Of a DNA stretch of 64,000 nt, positions 1 through 62,216 are shown in pieces. Numbering within the stretch: position 1 is the first letter of the stretch; every line of letters starts with the position of its first letter. The position numbers and the translations under genes are program-made. Under the pieces are notes generated by a model. The model searched no databases, was not told the DNA's origin, and was given only the letters and a program-made list of their open reading frames with translations. The stretch is from Escherichia coli (GTDB lineage: Bacteria > Pseudomonadota > Gammaproteobacteria > Enterobacterales > Enterobacteriaceae): NCBI RefSeq assembly GCF_003018255.1, contig NZ_CP027440.1, one strand, 5' to 3'.

Positions 1-274
1 GCGCCGCGATCACCTGGAAAACTTCGTTAAGAGCCTGGAAGCCAATCCGAAACAGTTCCCGGATTTTGGCCCACGTCTGGCGGAAATCAAAGCGCAAACC
101 CTGATTGTCTGGGGGCGCAACGACCGCTTTGTGCCGATGGATGCGGGTCTGCGTCTGCTGTCCGGCATTGCCGGTTCTGAACTGCATATCTTCCGCGACT
201 GTGGTCACTGGGCGCAGTGGGAACATGCCGACGCTTTCAATCAACTGGTGCTGAATTTCCTCGCACGCCCTTAA
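1..274 (+). CDS. mhpC: 2-hydroxy-6-oxonona-2,4-dienedioate hydrolase, C-terminal fragment (5' end outside window)
   Basis: Open frame from window edge to TAA 272-274; C-terminus ...[12 protein letters not shown] recognised as MhpC; mhpD starts 9 bp downstream. Confidence 0.85.
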
Positions 275-2036
<1,762 letters not shown>

Positions 2037-2040
<4 letters not shown>

Positions 2041-3050
2041 ACGGTAAAAAACTTTATATCTCGGACGTCACGTTGCGTGACGGTATGCACGCCATTCGTC
2101 ATCAGTATTCATTGGAAAACGTTCGCCAGGTTGCCAAAGCACTGGACGATGCCCGCGTGGATTCGATTGAAGTGGCCCACGGCGACGGTTTGCAAGGTTC
2201 CAGCTTTAACTATGGTTTCGGCGCACATAGCGACCTTGAATGGATTGAAGCGGCGGCGGATGTGGTGAAGCACGCCAAAATCGCGACGTTGTTGCTGCCT
2301 GGAATCGGCACTATTCACGATCTGAAAAATGCCTGGCAGGCTGGCGCGCGGGTGGTTCGTGTGGCTACGCACTGTACCGAAGCTGATGTTTCCGCCCAGC
2401 ATATTCAGTATGCTCGCGAGCTCGGAATGGACACCGTTGGTTTTCTGATGATGAGCCATATGACCACGCCGGAGAATCTCGCAAAGCAGGCAAAGCTGAT
2501 GGAAGGCTACGGTGCGACCTGTATTTATGTGGTGGATTCTGGCGGTGCGATGAACATGAGCGATATCCGTGACCGTTTCCGCGCTCTGAAAGCAGTGCTG
2601 AAACCAGAAACGCAAACCGGCATACACGCTCACCATAACCTGAGTCTTGGCGTGGCGAACTCTATCGCGGCGGTGGAAGAGGGCTGCGACCGAATCGACG
2701 CCAGCCTCGCGGGAATGGGCGCGGGCGCAGGTAACGCGCCGCTGGAAGTTTTTATTGCCGCCGCGGATAAACTGGGTTGGCAGCATGGGACCGATCTCTA
2801 TGCGTTAATGGATGCCGCTGACGACCTGGTGCGTCCGTTGCAGGATCGACCGGTACGAGTCGATCGCGAAACGCTGGCGCTGGGATACGCTGGTGTTTAC
2901 TCGAGCTTCCTGCGTCACTGTGAAACGGCGGCGGCGCGTTATGGCTTAAGCGCGGTGGATATTCTCGTTGAGCTGGGCAAACGCCGGATGGTTGGCGGCC
3001 AGGAGGATATGATCGTCGACGTGGCGCTGGATCTGCGCAACAACAAATAA
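2037..3050 (+). CDS. mhpE: 4-hydroxy-2-oxovalerate aldolase
   Basis: 337 aa; recognised as MhpE; ATGA-coupled to mhpF. Confidence 0.95.
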
Positions 3051-3097
3051 TGATGACTGCCGAGAACGTGCATTTTGTATGCCCATCCCAGCACGAC

Positions 3098-3132
<35 letters not shown>

Positions 3133-3225
3133 ATTTCGCCCGTAGGCAGTCATTAAATGGTTCTGATTACGCGGCTGACAATGTATCAGCCGCGATTCAC
3201 CTGCACTCGCAACGAGGTTCATCTT

Positions 3226-4437
3226 ATGTCGACTCGTACCCCTTCATCATCTTCAACCCGCCTGATGCTGACCATCGGGCTTTGTTTTTTGGTCGCTCTG
3301 ATGGAAGGACTGGATCTTCAGGCGGCTGGCATTGCGGCGGGTGGCATCGCCCAGGCTTTCGCACTCGATAAAATGCAAATGGGCTGGATATTCAGCGCCG
3401 GAATACTCGGTTTGCTACCCGGCGCGTTGGTTGGCGGAATGCTGGCGGACCGTTATGGTCGCAAGCGCATTTTGATTGGCTCAGTTGCGCTGTTTGGTTT
3501 GTTCTCACTGGCAACGGCGATTGCCTGGGATTTCCCCTCACTGGTCTTTGCGCGGCTGATGACCGGTGTCGGGCTGGGGGCGGCGTTGCCGAATCTGATC
3601 GCCCTGACGTCTGAAGCCGCGGGTCCACGTTTTCGTGGGACGGCAGTGAGCCTGATGTATTGCGGTGTCCCCATTGGCGCGGCGCTGGCGGCGACACTGG
3701 GTTTCGCGGGGGCAAACTTAGCATGGCAAACGGTGTTTTGGGTAGGTGGTGTGGTGCCGTTGATTCTGGTGCCGCTATTAATGCGCTGGCTGCCGGAGTC
3801 GGCGGTGTTCGCTGGCGAAAAACAGGCTGCGCCACCACTGCGTGCGTTATTTGCGCCAGAAACGGCAACCGCGACGCTGCTGCTGTGGTTGTGTTATTTC
3901 TTCACTCTGCTGGTGGTCTACATGTTGATCAACTGGCTACCGCTGCTTTTGGTGGAGCAAGGATTCCAGCCATCGCAGGCGGCAGGGGTGATGTTTGCAC
4001 TGCAAATGGGGGCGGCAAGCGGGACGTTAATGTTGGGCGCATTGATGGATAAGCTGCGTCCAGTAACCATGTCGCTACTGATTTATAGCGGCATGTTAGC
4101 TTCGCTGCTGGCGCTGGGAACGGTGTCGTCATTTAACGGTATGTTGCTGGCGGGATTCGTCGCGGGGTTGTTTGCGACAGGTGGGCAAAGCGTTTTGTAT
4201 GCCCTGGCACCGTTGTTTTACAGTTCGCAGATCCGCGCAACAGGTGTGGGAACAGCCGTGGCGGTAGGGCGTCTGGGGGCTATGAGCGGTCCGTTACTGG
4301 CCGGGAAAATGCTGGCATTAGGCATTGGCACGGTTGGCGTAATGGCCGCTTCTGCGCCGGGTATTCTTGTTGCTGGCCTGGCAGTATTTATTTTGATGAG
4401 CCGGAGATCACGAATGCAGCCGTGCGCCGATGCCTGA
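3226..4437 (+). CDS. mhpT: 3-hydroxyphenylpropionate MFS transporter
   Basis: ATG 3226 preceded by gagg SD; 403 aa (track ORF from 3157 is an upstream extension); multiple hydrophobic TM segments; recognised as MhpT. Confidence 0.9.
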   Translation: MSTRTPSSSSTRLMLTIGLCFLVALMEGLDLQAAGIAAGGIAQAFALDKMQMGWIFSAGILGLLPGALVGGMLADRYGRKRILIGSVALFGLFSLATAIAWDFPSLVFARLMTGVGLGAALPNLIALTSEAAGPRFRGTAVSLMYCGVPIGAALAATLGFAGANLAWQTVFWVGGVVPLILVPLLMRWLPESAVFAGEKQAAPPLRALFAPETATATLLLWLCYFFTLLVVYMLINWLPLLLVEQGFQPSQAAGVMFALQMGAASGTLMLGALMDKLRPVTMSLLIYSGMLASLLALGTVSSFNGMLLAGFVAGLFATGGQSVLYALAPLFYSSQIRATGVGTAVAVGRLGAMSGPLLAGKMLALGIGTVGVMAASAPGILVAGLAVFILMSRRSRMQPCADA

Positions 4438-4538
4438 CGCGCCTTATTAAGCAGGGGCGAAAGGGACTTGCCCCCAATACACCTACGGCGTTTACAGGTA
4501 TACTCGCTAAAAATTATTCAGCGGGTTTGGAAACAAAG

Positions 4539-5078
4539 ATGGCAAAACTTACCTTACAAGAGCAGTTGCTCAAAGCAGGATTAGTCACCAGCAAAAAAGC
4601 GGCGAAGGTCGAGAGAACGGCGAAAAAATCGCGCGTTCAGGCGCGTGAAGCTCGGGCGGCGGTAGAAGAAAATAAAAAGGCACAGCTTGAGCGTGATAAA
4701 CAGCTTAGCGAACAGCAAAAACAAGCGGCGTTGGCGAAAGAATATAAAGCCCAGGTGAAGCAGCTCATTGAAATGAACCGAATCACCATTGCCAATGGCG
4801 ATATTGGTTTTAACTTCACTGACGGCAATCTGATTAAGAAGATTTTTGTCGATAAGCTCACACAGGCGCAGTTGATTAATGGTCGTCTGGCGATTGCCCG
4901 CTTGTTGGTCGATAACAATAGCGAAGGTGAATACGCCATTATTCCCGCCAGTGTTGCCGATAAAATTGCTCAGCGTGATGCCAGCAGTATTGTGTTGCAC
5001 AGCGCGCTCAGCGCCGAAGAGCAGGATGAAGACGATCCGTATGCCGACTTCAAAGTGCCTGATGATTTGATGTGGTAA
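4539..5078 (+). CDS. yaiL: DUF2058 family protein YaiL
   Basis: ATG 4539 (MAKLTLQEQ...), 179 aa, Lys/Glu-rich N-terminus; track ORF from 4422 overlaps the mhpT 3' end. Confidence 0.85.
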   Translation: MAKLTLQEQLLKAGLVTSKKAAKVERTAKKSRVQAREARAAVEENKKAQLERDKQLSEQQKQAALAKEYKAQVKQLIEMNRITIANGDIGFNFTDGNLIKKIFVDKLTQAQLINGRLAIARLLVDNNSEGEYAIIPASVADKIAQRDASSIVLHSALSAEEQDEDDPYADFKVPDDLMW

Positions 5079-5091
5079 ACATAGATAAGCC

Positions 5092-5300
<209 letters not shown>

Positions 5301-24984: not shown

Positions 24985-25087
24985 TGCCGGATGCGGCGCG
25001 AACGCCTTACCCTGCCTACAAAATCATGCAAAATCAGTATATTGCAATTATCTGGTAGGCCTGATAAGCAAAGCGCATCAGGCAATC
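24985..25087. repeat. REP pair (BIME) between yaiZ and ddlA
   Basis: gccggatgcggcgcgaacgccttaccctgcctac and gtaggcctgataagcaaagcgcatcaggc in inverted orientation. Confidence 0.7.
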
Positions 25088-32739: not shown

Positions 32740-33417
32740 ATGAGTGCGTCGTTGGCGATCCTGACCATCGGCATTGTACCTATGCAGGAAGTTTTGCCGC
32801 TCCTGACAGAATACATTGACGAAGATAATATTTCCCATCATAGCCTGCTGGGGAAGTTAAGCCGCGAAGAAGTGATGGCGGAGTACGCGCCAGAAGCAGG
32901 CGAAGACACAATTCTCACATTATTAAATGACAACCAGCTGGCCCATGTTTCGCGTCGTAAAGTGGAACGAGACCTGCAAGGTGTGGTTGAAGTGCTCGAT
33001 AATCAGGGTTACGACGTCATTATATTAATGAGTACAGCAAACATTAGTAGTATGACCGCGCGTAATACGATCTTTCTTGAGCCGTCGCGGATATTGCCAC
33101 CGCTGGTTTCCTCTATTGTTGAAGATCATCAGGTGGGGGTTATCGTTCCGGTTGAGGAGATGCTGCCCGTTCAGACGCAAAAATGGCAAATTTTGCAGAA
33201 ATCGCCGGTATTTTCATTGGGTAACCCCATTCATGATTCAGAACAAAAAATCATTGATGCCGGGAAGGAATTACTGGCAAAAGGGGCTGATGTCATCATG
33301 CTGGATTGTTTAGGATTTCACCAACGTCATCGCGATTTACTGCAAAAACAGCTCGATGTTCCTGTCTTGCTCTCTAACGTATTGATTGCACGGCTGGCTG
33401 CGGAATTACTGGTGTAA
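32740..33417 (+). CDS. aroM: AroM family protein (function unknown)
   Basis: 225 aa; recognised as AroM. Confidence 0.9.
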
Positions 33418-33488
33418 TTTTGCGTGACAGCCAGCGCCTCTGGCCCCTATAGTGAAGTAGATGTTCAACTACCAGACAGGGCCAGTTT

Positions 33489-33773
33489 ATGCTTCAAAGT
33501 AATGAGTACTTTTCAGGCAAAGTGAAATCGATCGGCTTTTCCAGCAGCAGCACTGGTCGCGCCAGCGTGGGTGTTATGGTTGAAGGTGAATACACCTTCA
33601 GCACCGCTGAGCCTGAAGAGATGACGGTAATCAGTGGCGCGCTGAATGTGTTACTGCCTGACGCGACCGACTGGCAAGTGTATGAAGCCGGTTCGGTGTT
33701 TAATGTTCCCGGTCACAGCGAGTTTCATCTGCAAGTTGCCGAACCCACCTCTTATCTGTGCCGCTATCTGTAA
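33489..33773 (+). CDS. ppnP: pyrimidine/purine nucleoside phosphorylase PpnP (YaiE)
   Basis: 94 aa cupin-like ([17 protein letters not shown]...). Confidence 0.9.
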
Positions 33774-33980
33774 TTCCTCGCCTTCCCCTTGAACGGGAGG
33801 GCATTTTTCTGAAATGTCCTCTCTTTAACCCATAATAATATTTCCTTTGCTGGGATTTTTTCGATTTCCGATATATTCATAATTCATCAAGGTTGATATA
33901 AATATCAGCGAAGATCTCCAGATATTGTTGCGGAACTGGCGACGATAAAAGATAAATCAGATGATGAATGGTGGCGTGCA

Positions 33981-34259
33981 TTGCTGCAAAGTCGCAATGA
34001 TCATTTGCGCCAAACGGCATTGCACAACGCACATACCCCGGTGTTGTTAACGACATTGACTGAGTCTCAGGATCGGTCGCTGGCTATTAATAATCCACAG
34101 CTGGCTGCCGATGTGAAAACGGTGTGGCTAAAAGAGGAGCCATCATTACTTTTATTTGTCGATCAACCCGCTCTTTCGCAGTTACGGGATTTAGTGAAAA
34201 CCGGGGCAACGCGGAAAATTCGCAGTGAAGCGCGTCACCGGCTTGAGGAAAAACAATGA
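33981..34259 (+). CDS. hypothetical protein (possibly the K-12 ykiA-type ORF)
   Basis: 92-codon ORF in the ppnP-rdgC spacer; no recognisable motif; weak coding evidence. Confidence 0.3.
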   Translation: MLQSRNDHLRQTALHNAHTPVLLTTLTESQDRSLAINNPQLAADVKTVWLKEEPSLLLFVDQPALSQLRDLVKTGATRKIRSEARHRLEEKQ

Positions 34260-34364
34260 CACAACGCCCCTGGAGCAAGTTACAGCGTAAAACGCATAAT
34301 ATTGCTGCGCTAAAAATTATTGCCCGCCGTAGCGAATAATTATATGCCTGGTGTAGCTTCGTAC

Positions 34365-34398
34365 GCCGGATAAGACGCGGCAGGCGTCGCATCCGGCA
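34365..34398. repeat. REP palindrome
   Basis: gccggataagacgcggcaggcgtcgcatccggca between the hypothetical ORF and the rdgC 3' end. Confidence 0.7.
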
Positions 34399-34416
34399 TT
34401 AAAGGTAAATCAGCAA

Positions 34417-35328
34417 TTAACGTTGTGCTTCGCCACCTAATCCTTCAATCAGGTTTTGAATTAACGCTGCCAGTTCACCAGTCATCAGGATGAAATCGGC
34501 ATCAAAACGCTGGGCGAAATCTTCACGGTCGATATCTTCGTTTTGATCGCGCAGCTCGTCGCAGAACTTCAGACGCTTGAGCGAACCATCGTCGCACATC
34601 ACAAACTGAATGCGCTGCTGCCAGTCGAGCGCCAGTTTAGTCACCACTTTTCCGGCTTCGATGTGATTGGTGATCTCTTCGCTGGTCAGATCTTGTTTCT
34701 TCGCGCGGATCACTCCACCATCTTCCAGCAGCGATTTCAGCTCGGCTTCATCAAGCAGCTGGAAGCCCTGTGCCGCGCTGCCGGAGCGAACCCATTCGGT
34801 CAGCGTCAGTTCAATCGGGTTTTCCATGCTCAATGGTACAACCGGTAACGACCCCAGGCTTTTACGCAGCAGTGCCAGCGTATCTTCCGCTTTTTTGGCA
34901 CTGGCGCAGTCCACCATAATCAAACCGTTAACCGTGTCGATCCACATCATTGTCTGGCTAAAACGGCTGAAAGCACGCGGTAGCAGAGAGTGCAGCACTT
35001 CGTCTTTCAGCGAATCTTTTTCGGTTTTCTTCAGCTTACGCGCCTGTTCCGCTTCCAGTTTGGCGATTTTCGCTTCCAGCGCCTGTTTAATCACCGGAGA
35101 CGGGAGGATTTTTTCTTCTTTGCGCGCGCAGATAACAATTTGACCATTGGCAACGTGCGTTAACGCATCGCTGTGCGATCCCATCGGAGGAACCCAGCCC
35201 ATCTTCGCCATGTCCTGGCTGCCGCATGGGGTAAATGCCATCGAGGCTAGCTGTTTTTCCATCTCTTCTGCACGCAACGAAATCTCGCGGCTAAGACGGT
35301 AAACCATTAAATTTTTGAACCACAGCAT
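34417..35328 (-). CDS. rdgC: recombination-associated protein RdgC
   Basis: ATG at 35326-35328 ([12 protein letters not shown]...), 303 aa. Confidence 0.95.
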
Positions 35329-36386: not shown

Positions 36387-36472
36387 GCCTGATGCGACGC
36401 TTGCCGCGTCTTATCAGGCCTACAAAATGAGCAACCCGTAGGCCGGATAAGGTGTTCACGCCGCATCCGGCA
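36387..36472. repeat. REP pair (BIME) between mak and araJ
   Basis: gcctgatgcgacgcttgccgcgtcttatcaggcctac ... gtaggccggataaggtgttcacgccgcatccggca. Confidence 0.8.
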
Positions 36473-62177: not shown

Positions 62178-62216
62178 GATGCCTGATGTGACGCTTGTCA
62201 CGTCTCATCAGGCCTG
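62178..62216. repeat. REP palindrome between convergent pgpA and yajO
   Basis: gatgcctgatgtgacgcttgtcacgtctcatcaggcctgc. Confidence 0.75.

Follow-up and report, generated by a model that had tools for sequence, protein, structure and literature searches.

Remains of a two-gene module between ppnP and rdgC in Escherichia coli: the ykiA pseudogene, the ykiD stub and a stepwise series of deletion alleles

The locus considered here is the ppnP-rdgC interval of the Escherichia coli chromosome, 643 bp long, which we analysed in a stretch of 64,000 nucleotides of contig NZ_CP027440.1 (assembly GCF_003018255.1), hereafter the window, to which positions refer unless another sequence is named. The interval carries a 92-codon open reading frame (ORF), the small gene ykiD and a repetitive extragenic palindromic (REP) element (Table 1). 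That the flanking genes are ppnP and rdgC is confirmed by RefSeq, which annotates them in a genome of 99.8% identity. An earlier note, drawn up from the letters of this DNA alone, had pointed to the ORF between these two genes, and its coordinates were reproduced exactly. The evidence below makes it very probable that the ORF belongs to the pseudogene ykiA, the C-terminal ~15% (the last seventh) of an ancestral 759-codon gene destroyed by deletions in most strains.

Table 1. Features of the ppnP-rdgC interval and its surroundings (positions in the window)
Feature	Position	Strand	Description
aroM	32740-33417		Neighbour on the ppnP side
ppnP	33489-33773	+	Upstream flank of the ORF
Terminator-like hairpin with T-run	33780-33802	+	Just 3' of the ppnP stop; 8 pairs, 6 of them GC; tail ATTTTTCTGA
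Retained upstream region of the 759-codon gene	33803-33915	+	113 bp, 37% GC; promoter-like hexamers at 33809-33836
Composite deletion junction	33916-33932	+	17-nt mid-gene piece; from blastn pieces and junction alignment
ykiA pseudogene	33921-34259	+	Last ~112 codons and stop of the 759-codon DUF2773-family gene
92-codon ORF	33981-34259	+	TTG start, 92 aa; from the open reading frame listing
ykiD	34256-34339	+	27 codons; RefSeq 'protein YkiD'
Second deletion junction	34278-34287	+	Sole surviving copy of a 10-nt direct repeat; from overlapping blastn pieces
REP element	34365-34397	-	33-nt imperfect palindrome GCCGGATAAGACGCGGCAGGCGTCGCATCCGGC, between the convergent ykiD and rdgC
rdgC	34417-35328	-	Right-hand flank; mak lies beyond

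RefSeq describes the equivalent of 33921-34259 as a pseudogene, 'DUF2773 domain-containing protein; incomplete; missing N-terminus', and that of 34256-34339 as 'protein YkiD', both in the nearest genome and in one that is K-12-like. The 92-codon ORF is a subset of this frame. Homology to the intact gene starts at 33921, and the TTG at 33981 is merely the first start-like codon after an in-frame upstream stop, no canonical ATG or GTG start being present upstream of it. The note had mentioned an annotated K-12 y-gene here, rightly: this is ykiA, with ykiD immediately downstream. The composition of the ORF was fairly called average (GC 48.7% against 51.4% in the window), but the statement that it bears no recognisable motif was wrong, since its translation matches Pfam DUF2773 (PF10971) over profile positions 1-81 of 81 with 129 bits for a cut-off of 25 (E=7.5e-38). 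The remnant translation thus belongs to this domain family by the gathering score; in the 759-aa protein of O157:H7, this 81-residue model falls on residues 679-759. A functional full-length member of the DUF2773 family (~750-800 aa) would be expected to possess a start codon, a signal peptide, a beta-helix (residues ~65-176) and a complete alpha-solenoid; the ykiA remnant lacks both signal peptide and beta-helix, and where its homology begins there is no start codon. In the structure model of the intact protein, the retained codons correspond to the final helical hairpins of the alpha-solenoid. By megablast, the interval was found in 5,424 of 5,426 complete E. coli genomes.

The opposite strand carries an ATG-initiated ORF of 101 aa (34087-34392, minus strand), which lies opposite ykiA and ykiD and extends into the REP element. 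None of the genomes examined has it annotated, and it is most probably spurious. Because a frame of this size covers the same DNA on the other strand, the length of the 92-codon ORF is by itself no evidence of a gene.

In O157:H7, a gene for a 759-aa protein lies between ppnP and rdgC, followed by an SF0329-family gene (~150 aa) that overlaps it at ATGA. Aligned to this locus by blastn, the window separates into three co-linear blocks of 97-98% identity. The first (33400-33915, O157:H7 reverse-complement 1903-2418, 97.3%) ends at the base before the ATG of the long gene. The second (33921-34287) comprises the last 342 bp of the long gene and the first 32 bp of the SF0329 gene, the remnant showing 97.3% DNA identity to O157:H7 reverse-complement 4358-4727. 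In the third (34278-34500), the final ~56 bp of the SF0329 gene are followed by the REP element and by the end of rdgC. Relative to O157:H7, the window is therefore without ~1.9 kb of the 5' part of the first gene (codons 1 to ~646). Between the first two blocks stands a 17-nt piece identical to O157:H7 reverse-complement 3489-3505, which are 'SPDIVA' codons from the middle of the gene. It is joined on its left to the base before the start codon and on its right, through an imperfect 12-nt repeat (GATATTGTTGCG / GATATTTTTGCG), to the 'DSDIFAEL' codons. Consequently, at least two joins must have made the 5' deletion. The left junction is common to all sampled remnant alleles and to the GF50-type and 88-3493 alleles described below. 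As to the second gene, 10-nt direct repeats (AGTTACAGCG / AGTTACGGCG) flank, in intact alleles, the 372 bp missing from the window, a gap of 124 codons that is in frame. These junctions are identical in all 11 sampled remnant alleles, the window's own included, so that the deletions are to be regarded as old single events.

What is left of the second gene is ykiD, whose ATG overlaps the TGA of ykiA (ATGA) and is preceded 6 nt upstream by GAGGA. YkiD consists of residues 1-11 joined to residues 136-151 of a 151-aa SF0329-family protein, and the C-terminus of the LHM10-1 SF0329 allele, ...RRKTHNIAALKIIARRSE, is exactly that of YkiD. The sequence encoded in the window is identical to the published MTQRPWSKLQRKTHNIAALKIIARRSE. 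Over 9 alleles YkiD varies at 5 of its 27 positions, a premature stop in B2-type alleles leaving 26 aa, one residue fewer, and about 16% of genomes are without ykiD in the form found in the window. The 27-aa sequence has no match in Pfam or NCBIfam and keeps only 3 of the 17 invariant residues of the SF0329 family; it falls outside that family (PF25753 / NF049912), whose core comprises Q24, H26, C27, R44-Y45-W46, D56-Y57-P58, D110, W112, D122, R124 and G126. It is the co-linearity of the DNA, not membership, that shows its descent from the SF0329 family.

Expression of these remnants is documented in K-12. The literature that we found covers only the transcription of ykiA, whose promoter was mapped by 5' rapid amplification of cDNA ends, with lacZ fusions also reported, and is activated by BglJ-RcsB (PMC3950696), and the translation of ykiD, the chromosomally encoded protein carrying a sequential peptide affinity (SPA) tag having been detected in rich medium (Table 1 of PMC6001520). 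The region at 33803-33915, in K-12 the 'ykiA promoter', is co-linear with the DNA directly upstream of the ATG of the intact gene in O157:H7, and the upstream transcription unit ends at the hairpin that precedes it. Translation of the 27-aa stub is still driven by the ribosome-binding site inherited from the SF0329 gene, which explains the detection of YkiD. Inherited promoter and ribosome-binding site together account fully for the published data, which establish expression and not function.

To follow the distribution of these structures, 5,426 complete E. coli genomes were surveyed, a genome being counted when its best place covered at least 80% of the query. The intact 2.7-kb module occurs in 444 genomes (about 8%) and the double remnant of the window type in 4,543 (~84%). 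In a further type (GF50-type, 474 genomes, about 8%), the ykiA remnant is gone and a full-length SF0329 gene is kept: the left junction, GAAGAT followed by CTCCAG..., leads straight into the SF0329 ATG. In the two GF50-type alleles examined (L004:1667-2123 and L015:1801-2257), this SF0329 gene has an extra C in the C-run at codons 5-6, a frameshift; some GF50-type genomes list it as 'SF0329 family protein' with no pseudogene flag displayed.

The GF50-type structure implies an earlier intermediate in which the ykiA remnant was followed by an intact SF0329 gene. A synthetic query for this predicted state was composed of window 33489-34287 and O157:H7 reverse-complement 4728-5145, so designed that each of the other three types would cover less than 80% of it. 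It matched 54 genomes at 100% coverage in a single piece, the state having been predicted before the search, and strain 88-3493 is annotated with precisely the pseudogene and an intact 151-aa SF0329 gene. As nearby pieces were joined, these 54 genomes are probably also included in the 4,543 and the 474, and corrected numbers would be ~4,490 window-type, 420 GF50-type, 444 intact and 54 intermediate genomes. The four allelic states form a decay series within E. coli, in which the intermediate of the stepwise model has been found.

Outside E. coli, an enterobacterial metagenomic contig whose PpnP has 87% amino-acid identity to that of E. coli displays the order ppnP, DUF2773-family gene (31% identity), SF0329 gene (79%) and rdgC. 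The long gene, with 71-73% identity, has likewise been retained at this site by E. whittamii and Escherichia sp. E1V33. The intact arrangement is ancestral. In these two species the SF0329 gene is deleted, with a junction (ATG joined directly to AGGTCACGGCG; L022:4771-4924 and L023) that differs from the ykiD one and has another left end, which indicates an independent loss. The SF0329 gene has accordingly been inactivated in at least three separate ways in Escherichia: by the ykiD-type deletion, by the E. whittamii-type deletion and by frameshift. A search for related loci with a 40-sequence alignment gave no usable conserved stretch; a second one with 5 sequences returned only two other Escherichia species and one partial Saprospiraceae match, a result limited by the search pattern that does not demonstrate absence elsewhere.

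The earlier note had proposed the ratio of nonsynonymous to synonymous substitution rates (dN/dS) as a check of the ORF. Nei-Gojobori estimates pooled over 9 non-redundant remnant alleles gave 0.59 for the remnant frame (pN 0.035, pS 0.058) and 0.62 for the 92-codon ORF alone, while the two off-frames gave 0.79 and 1.05. The flanking genes stand at 0.10 (aroM), 0.02 (ppnP) and 0.02 (rdgC), the intact long gene at 0.33 (O157 versus LHM10-1), and full-length SF0329 alleles show a pN/pS ratio of 0.17. The remnant has accumulated 23 nonsynonymous and 13 synonymous mutations, not distinguishable from the neutral expectation of 71.7% nonsynonymous (p=0.35). Its segregating sites are spread uniformly over the three codon positions (11/10/16, p=0.43), those of the flanks are not (14/3/57, p=5e-15), and remnant and flanks differ significantly in this respect (Fisher p=6e-4). 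Synonymous divergence is the same in the remnant as in neighbouring genes. Constraint is relaxed and the remnant evolves at the neutral rate. A functional small protein would be expected to show purifying selection on its frame and presence throughout the species; the frame gives 0.59-0.62, and the remnant is absent from up to 474 GF50-type genomes and replaced by the long gene in 444.

Several observations nonetheless weigh against reading ykiA as a decaying fragment. No frameshift or stop occurs inside 33927-34256 in the 11 remnant alleles despite ~4-5% divergence, which for 330 bp and 11 alleles is weak evidence; the only indel there is an in-frame one of 3 nt near 34042, and two alleles have a 1-nt insertion at the junction near 33924. 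The ratio of 0.59 is below 1, though with 36 changes it is indistinguishable from neutrality, and the rate estimate comes from only 9 non-redundant alleles; some of the polymorphism may predate the deletions or stem from recombination with intact alleles. Moreover, the remnant is kept in about 84% of complete genomes, and a regulated, active promoter with a translated stub may leave room for a residual or new role of the transcript or of YkiD. The earlier note would have given up a coding role if frame-disrupting indels were seen without selective constraint, and the outcome is divided: constraint is relaxed and the remnant is deleted in about 8% of genomes, but the sampled alleles contain no frameshift inside 33981-34259.

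We propose the following sequence of events. A 759-codon gene and a 151-codon SF0329-family gene would have stood between ppnP and rdgC. In the lineage of most E. coli, deletions would then have removed codons 1 to ~646. At least two joins are visible, of which one lies within the gene and links short imperfect repeats; what survived was the downstream gene together with the promoter and the final ~112 codons, and some strains are still at this intermediate. Later, a 372-bp in-frame deletion between the 10-nt direct repeats would have produced the 27-codon ykiD, the state of the window and of K-12, and in another lineage the ykiA remnant itself would have been deleted instead. The remaining frame would be open by inheritance and chance, gathering substitutions at the neutral rate, and the old promoter still fires, activated by BglJ-RcsB in K-12.

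The opposite direction of change, with the short form ancestral and the long gene gained by insertion in O157:H7-like strains, appears very improbable. The low GC of the intact gene (42.4% against 51.4%) and its narrow distribution are typical of horizontally acquired DNA and would suit such a gain. Yet the 17-nt mid-gene piece at the junction of the short form is explicable by deletion only, ykiD joins both ends of an SF0329 gene at a direct repeat, E. whittamii, Escherichia sp. E1V33 and an enterobacterium of greater distance have the intact arrangement at this very site, and intermediates exist (the 54 genomes; strain 88-3493). Still further from probable is a chance open frame in intergenic DNA that never coded. 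A similarly long frame on the other strand and the want of a canonical ATG or GTG upstream of the TTG could be taken in its favour, but the region shares 97% identity with the 3' end of a 2,280-bp gene that is intact elsewhere, and full-length homologues at 25-49% identity span the ykiA segment; the DUF2773 match (E=7.5e-38) and the alignment to O157:H7 have already refuted it.

A less remote alternative, improbable all the same, is a remnant operon with a function of its own under BglJ-RcsB control, exerted by ykiA as a helical-repeat peptide of ~92-113 aa or, more plausibly, by the 27-aa YkiD. The K-12 promoter is indeed active and regulated, tagged YkiD is detected, ykiD keeps the GAGGA ribosome-binding site and the ATGA overlap, the frame is open in 11 of 11 sampled remnant alleles and the window-type allele prevails in ~84% of genomes. 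However, substitutions in the ykiA frame fit neutrality, and YkiD, variable and truncated in B2-type alleles as described, has kept just 3 of the 17 residues that are invariant in its parent family and fits no family model. The ykiA remnant is deleted in about 8% of genomes and ykiD is not in this form in about 16%; promoter and ribosome-binding site are inherited rather than new, and a tagged product attests translation, not function. We therefore keep to the pseudogene, whose remnants would lack function. The earlier note had hesitated between a genuine small gene and non-coding DNA; its interpretation is partly supported, but neither description fits a fragment of a larger gene that evolves as a pseudogene.

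The module from which these remnants derive is itself uncharacterised. The intact 759-codon gene (2,280 bp; O157:H7 reverse-complement 2420-4699) has 42.4% GC. Such a low value would fit horizontally acquired, H-NS-silenced DNA and the activation of its promoter by BglJ-RcsB, an H-NS antagonist. The 759-aa protein has few close relatives; an exhaustive profile-free search yielded 174 representatives, many of them 750-800 aa long at 25-35% identity, and the family gives weak matches to LRV, LRV_2 and HEAT. Its AlphaFold2 model, built on a 40-sequence alignment (mean predicted local distance difference test score, pLDDT, 90.9), displays a hydrophobic N-terminal helix, then a beta-helix (residues ~65-176) and finally a long LRV/HEAT-like alpha-solenoid (240-759). 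The N-terminal helix, shared by homologues, is apparently signal-peptide-like, which suggests that the intact protein is exported. A 49%-identical paralogue or orthologue was seen on Logan contig SRR28530750_114 (L026:3501-5741), between sprT-endA and a major facilitator superfamily sugar transporter with metK; this homologue at another enterobacterial locus implies that the family has moved between chromosomal sites.

The SF0329 family (542 matches) is spread over Proteobacteria, Bacteroidota, Firmicutes and others, as cytoplasmic proteins of ~150 aa with about 55-65% identity across phyla and 17 invariant columns in 58 sequences. Close to the 3' end of the O157:H7 SF0329 gene, an A-run is longer by one A (L005 reverse-complement 5110-5145), giving ...KNYCPP in place of the ...KIIARRSE of LHM10-1, so this 'intact' copy is itself slightly altered. 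The fold of SF0329, predicted with high confidence, has no match in the PDB; sequence searches of the PDB with both intact proteins returned nothing below E=0.1, the anti-phage defence models of PADLOC match neither of them, and NCBIfam recognises the SF0329 family only.

On three unrelated contigs SF0329 lies in same-strand arrays of small genes with Imm10, SUKH-3, Macro and DUF2314-ankyrin, two of these arrays being beside an integrase. Two metagenome contigs (L018:1726-12483 and L019:635-8756) carry a tyrosine integrase followed by ~20 small same-strand genes including Imm10, Macro, DUF7716 and SF0329, and look like integrase-linked arrays of the polyimmunity type. The layout of the SF0329 arrays resembles polyimmunity loci as described (PMC3482391), which is a lead and no proof. 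In E. coli the 759-aa upstream partner is without a toxin domain, and SF0329 is unusually conserved for an immunity protein. A toxin-immunity pair was considered and rejected: the large protein lacks any toxin-like domain, homologues of it occur alone with no SF0329 neighbour, and the two genes have been lost independently. Since distant homologues of the 759-aa protein stand alone, the two do not form an obligate pair. We tentatively raise the possibility, itself rather doubtful, that the window holds the wreck of a module whose SF0329 member could be an orphan immunity or toxin-reversing protein, lost at least three times at this site in Escherichia. Weaker still is a variant in which the YkiD stub or the ykiA transcript driven by BglJ-RcsB would have been co-opted for a new role.

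The REP palindrome that the earlier note had placed at 34365-34398 is real and ends at 34397. Its pattern is unique, with 0 expected in shuffles, and it folds better than all 200 shuffled sequences (stem z = -3.5). The minus strand bears the REP head GCCGGATGCGACG, a motif present 11 times in the window for 0.67 expected. In the Rfam scan nothing reached the gathering score; the best obtained for the element was a match below threshold to naRNA4, a REP-derived RNA family. The element belongs to the REP class, being an extragenic, imperfect palindrome of the expected size (about 35 nt) that bears the consensus head and is repeated in the genome. We rejected the idea that it is part of the remnant: it also stands beside the intact module of O157:H7, other species (E. 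whittamii, Escherichia sp. E1V33) have it as well, and it is therefore independent of the deletions. Further REP heads lie at 5102-5288, 36387-36471, 62181-62213, 3099-3111 and 24986-24998; several are in inverted pairs and look like clusters of bacterial interspersed mosaic elements (BIMEs), one of them just downstream of mak.

As ykiA is already known and marked as a pseudogene in databases, ykiD is a known small ORF and the REP is a standard one, the finding is ordinary and of little import for biology at large. Its added value is modest: the anatomy of the deletions is resolved, a four-state series with its confirmed intermediate is described, and two uncharacterised families are brought to attention that are intact in O157:H7. 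In practice, ykiA should be read as a gene fragment rather than as an uncharacterised protein of 92 or 113 aa, and both the 'ykiA promoter' as a BglJ-RcsB target and the detected 'YkiD' are best understood as signals left over from a dead two-gene module, not as a sign of new genes. The locus offers a clean and fully populated natural decay series by short-repeat-mediated deletion, from the intact state through the 5'-deleted one to a stub or to complete loss.

Compared with known systems, the window agrees with K-12 ykiA (b0392) and ykiD in locus, junctions and the presence of both features. The region is 95.8% identical to that of a K-12-like genome over 643 bp, the allele differing from K-12 by a 3-nt in-frame deletion (PVLL versus PALLL) and about 4% substitutions; its nearest relative is that of strain 2014C-3338 (99.8%). 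Of the orthologous O157:H7 module, composed of the DUF2773-domain protein WP_120795310.1 (759 aa) and the SF0329-family protein WP_001303823.1, what persists in the window is the upstream region, ~112 codons at the end of the first gene, and 11 codons from the start plus 16 from the end of the second; the window has lost the codons for the signal peptide, the beta-helix and most of the solenoid (1 to ~646) and 124 SF0329 codons. The closest known systems also include alpha-solenoid repeat proteins of the LRV or HEAT-like type: the Azotobacter LRV protein (1LRV), E. coli YibA (1OYZ) and the alphaRep designs. Finally, the palindrome shares with the REP/BIME elements of E. coli its 33-nt imperfect structure, the canonical head, its extragenic position and its many copies in the window, but here it is a single REP rather than a paired BIME, and it is unrelated to the decay of the genes beside it.
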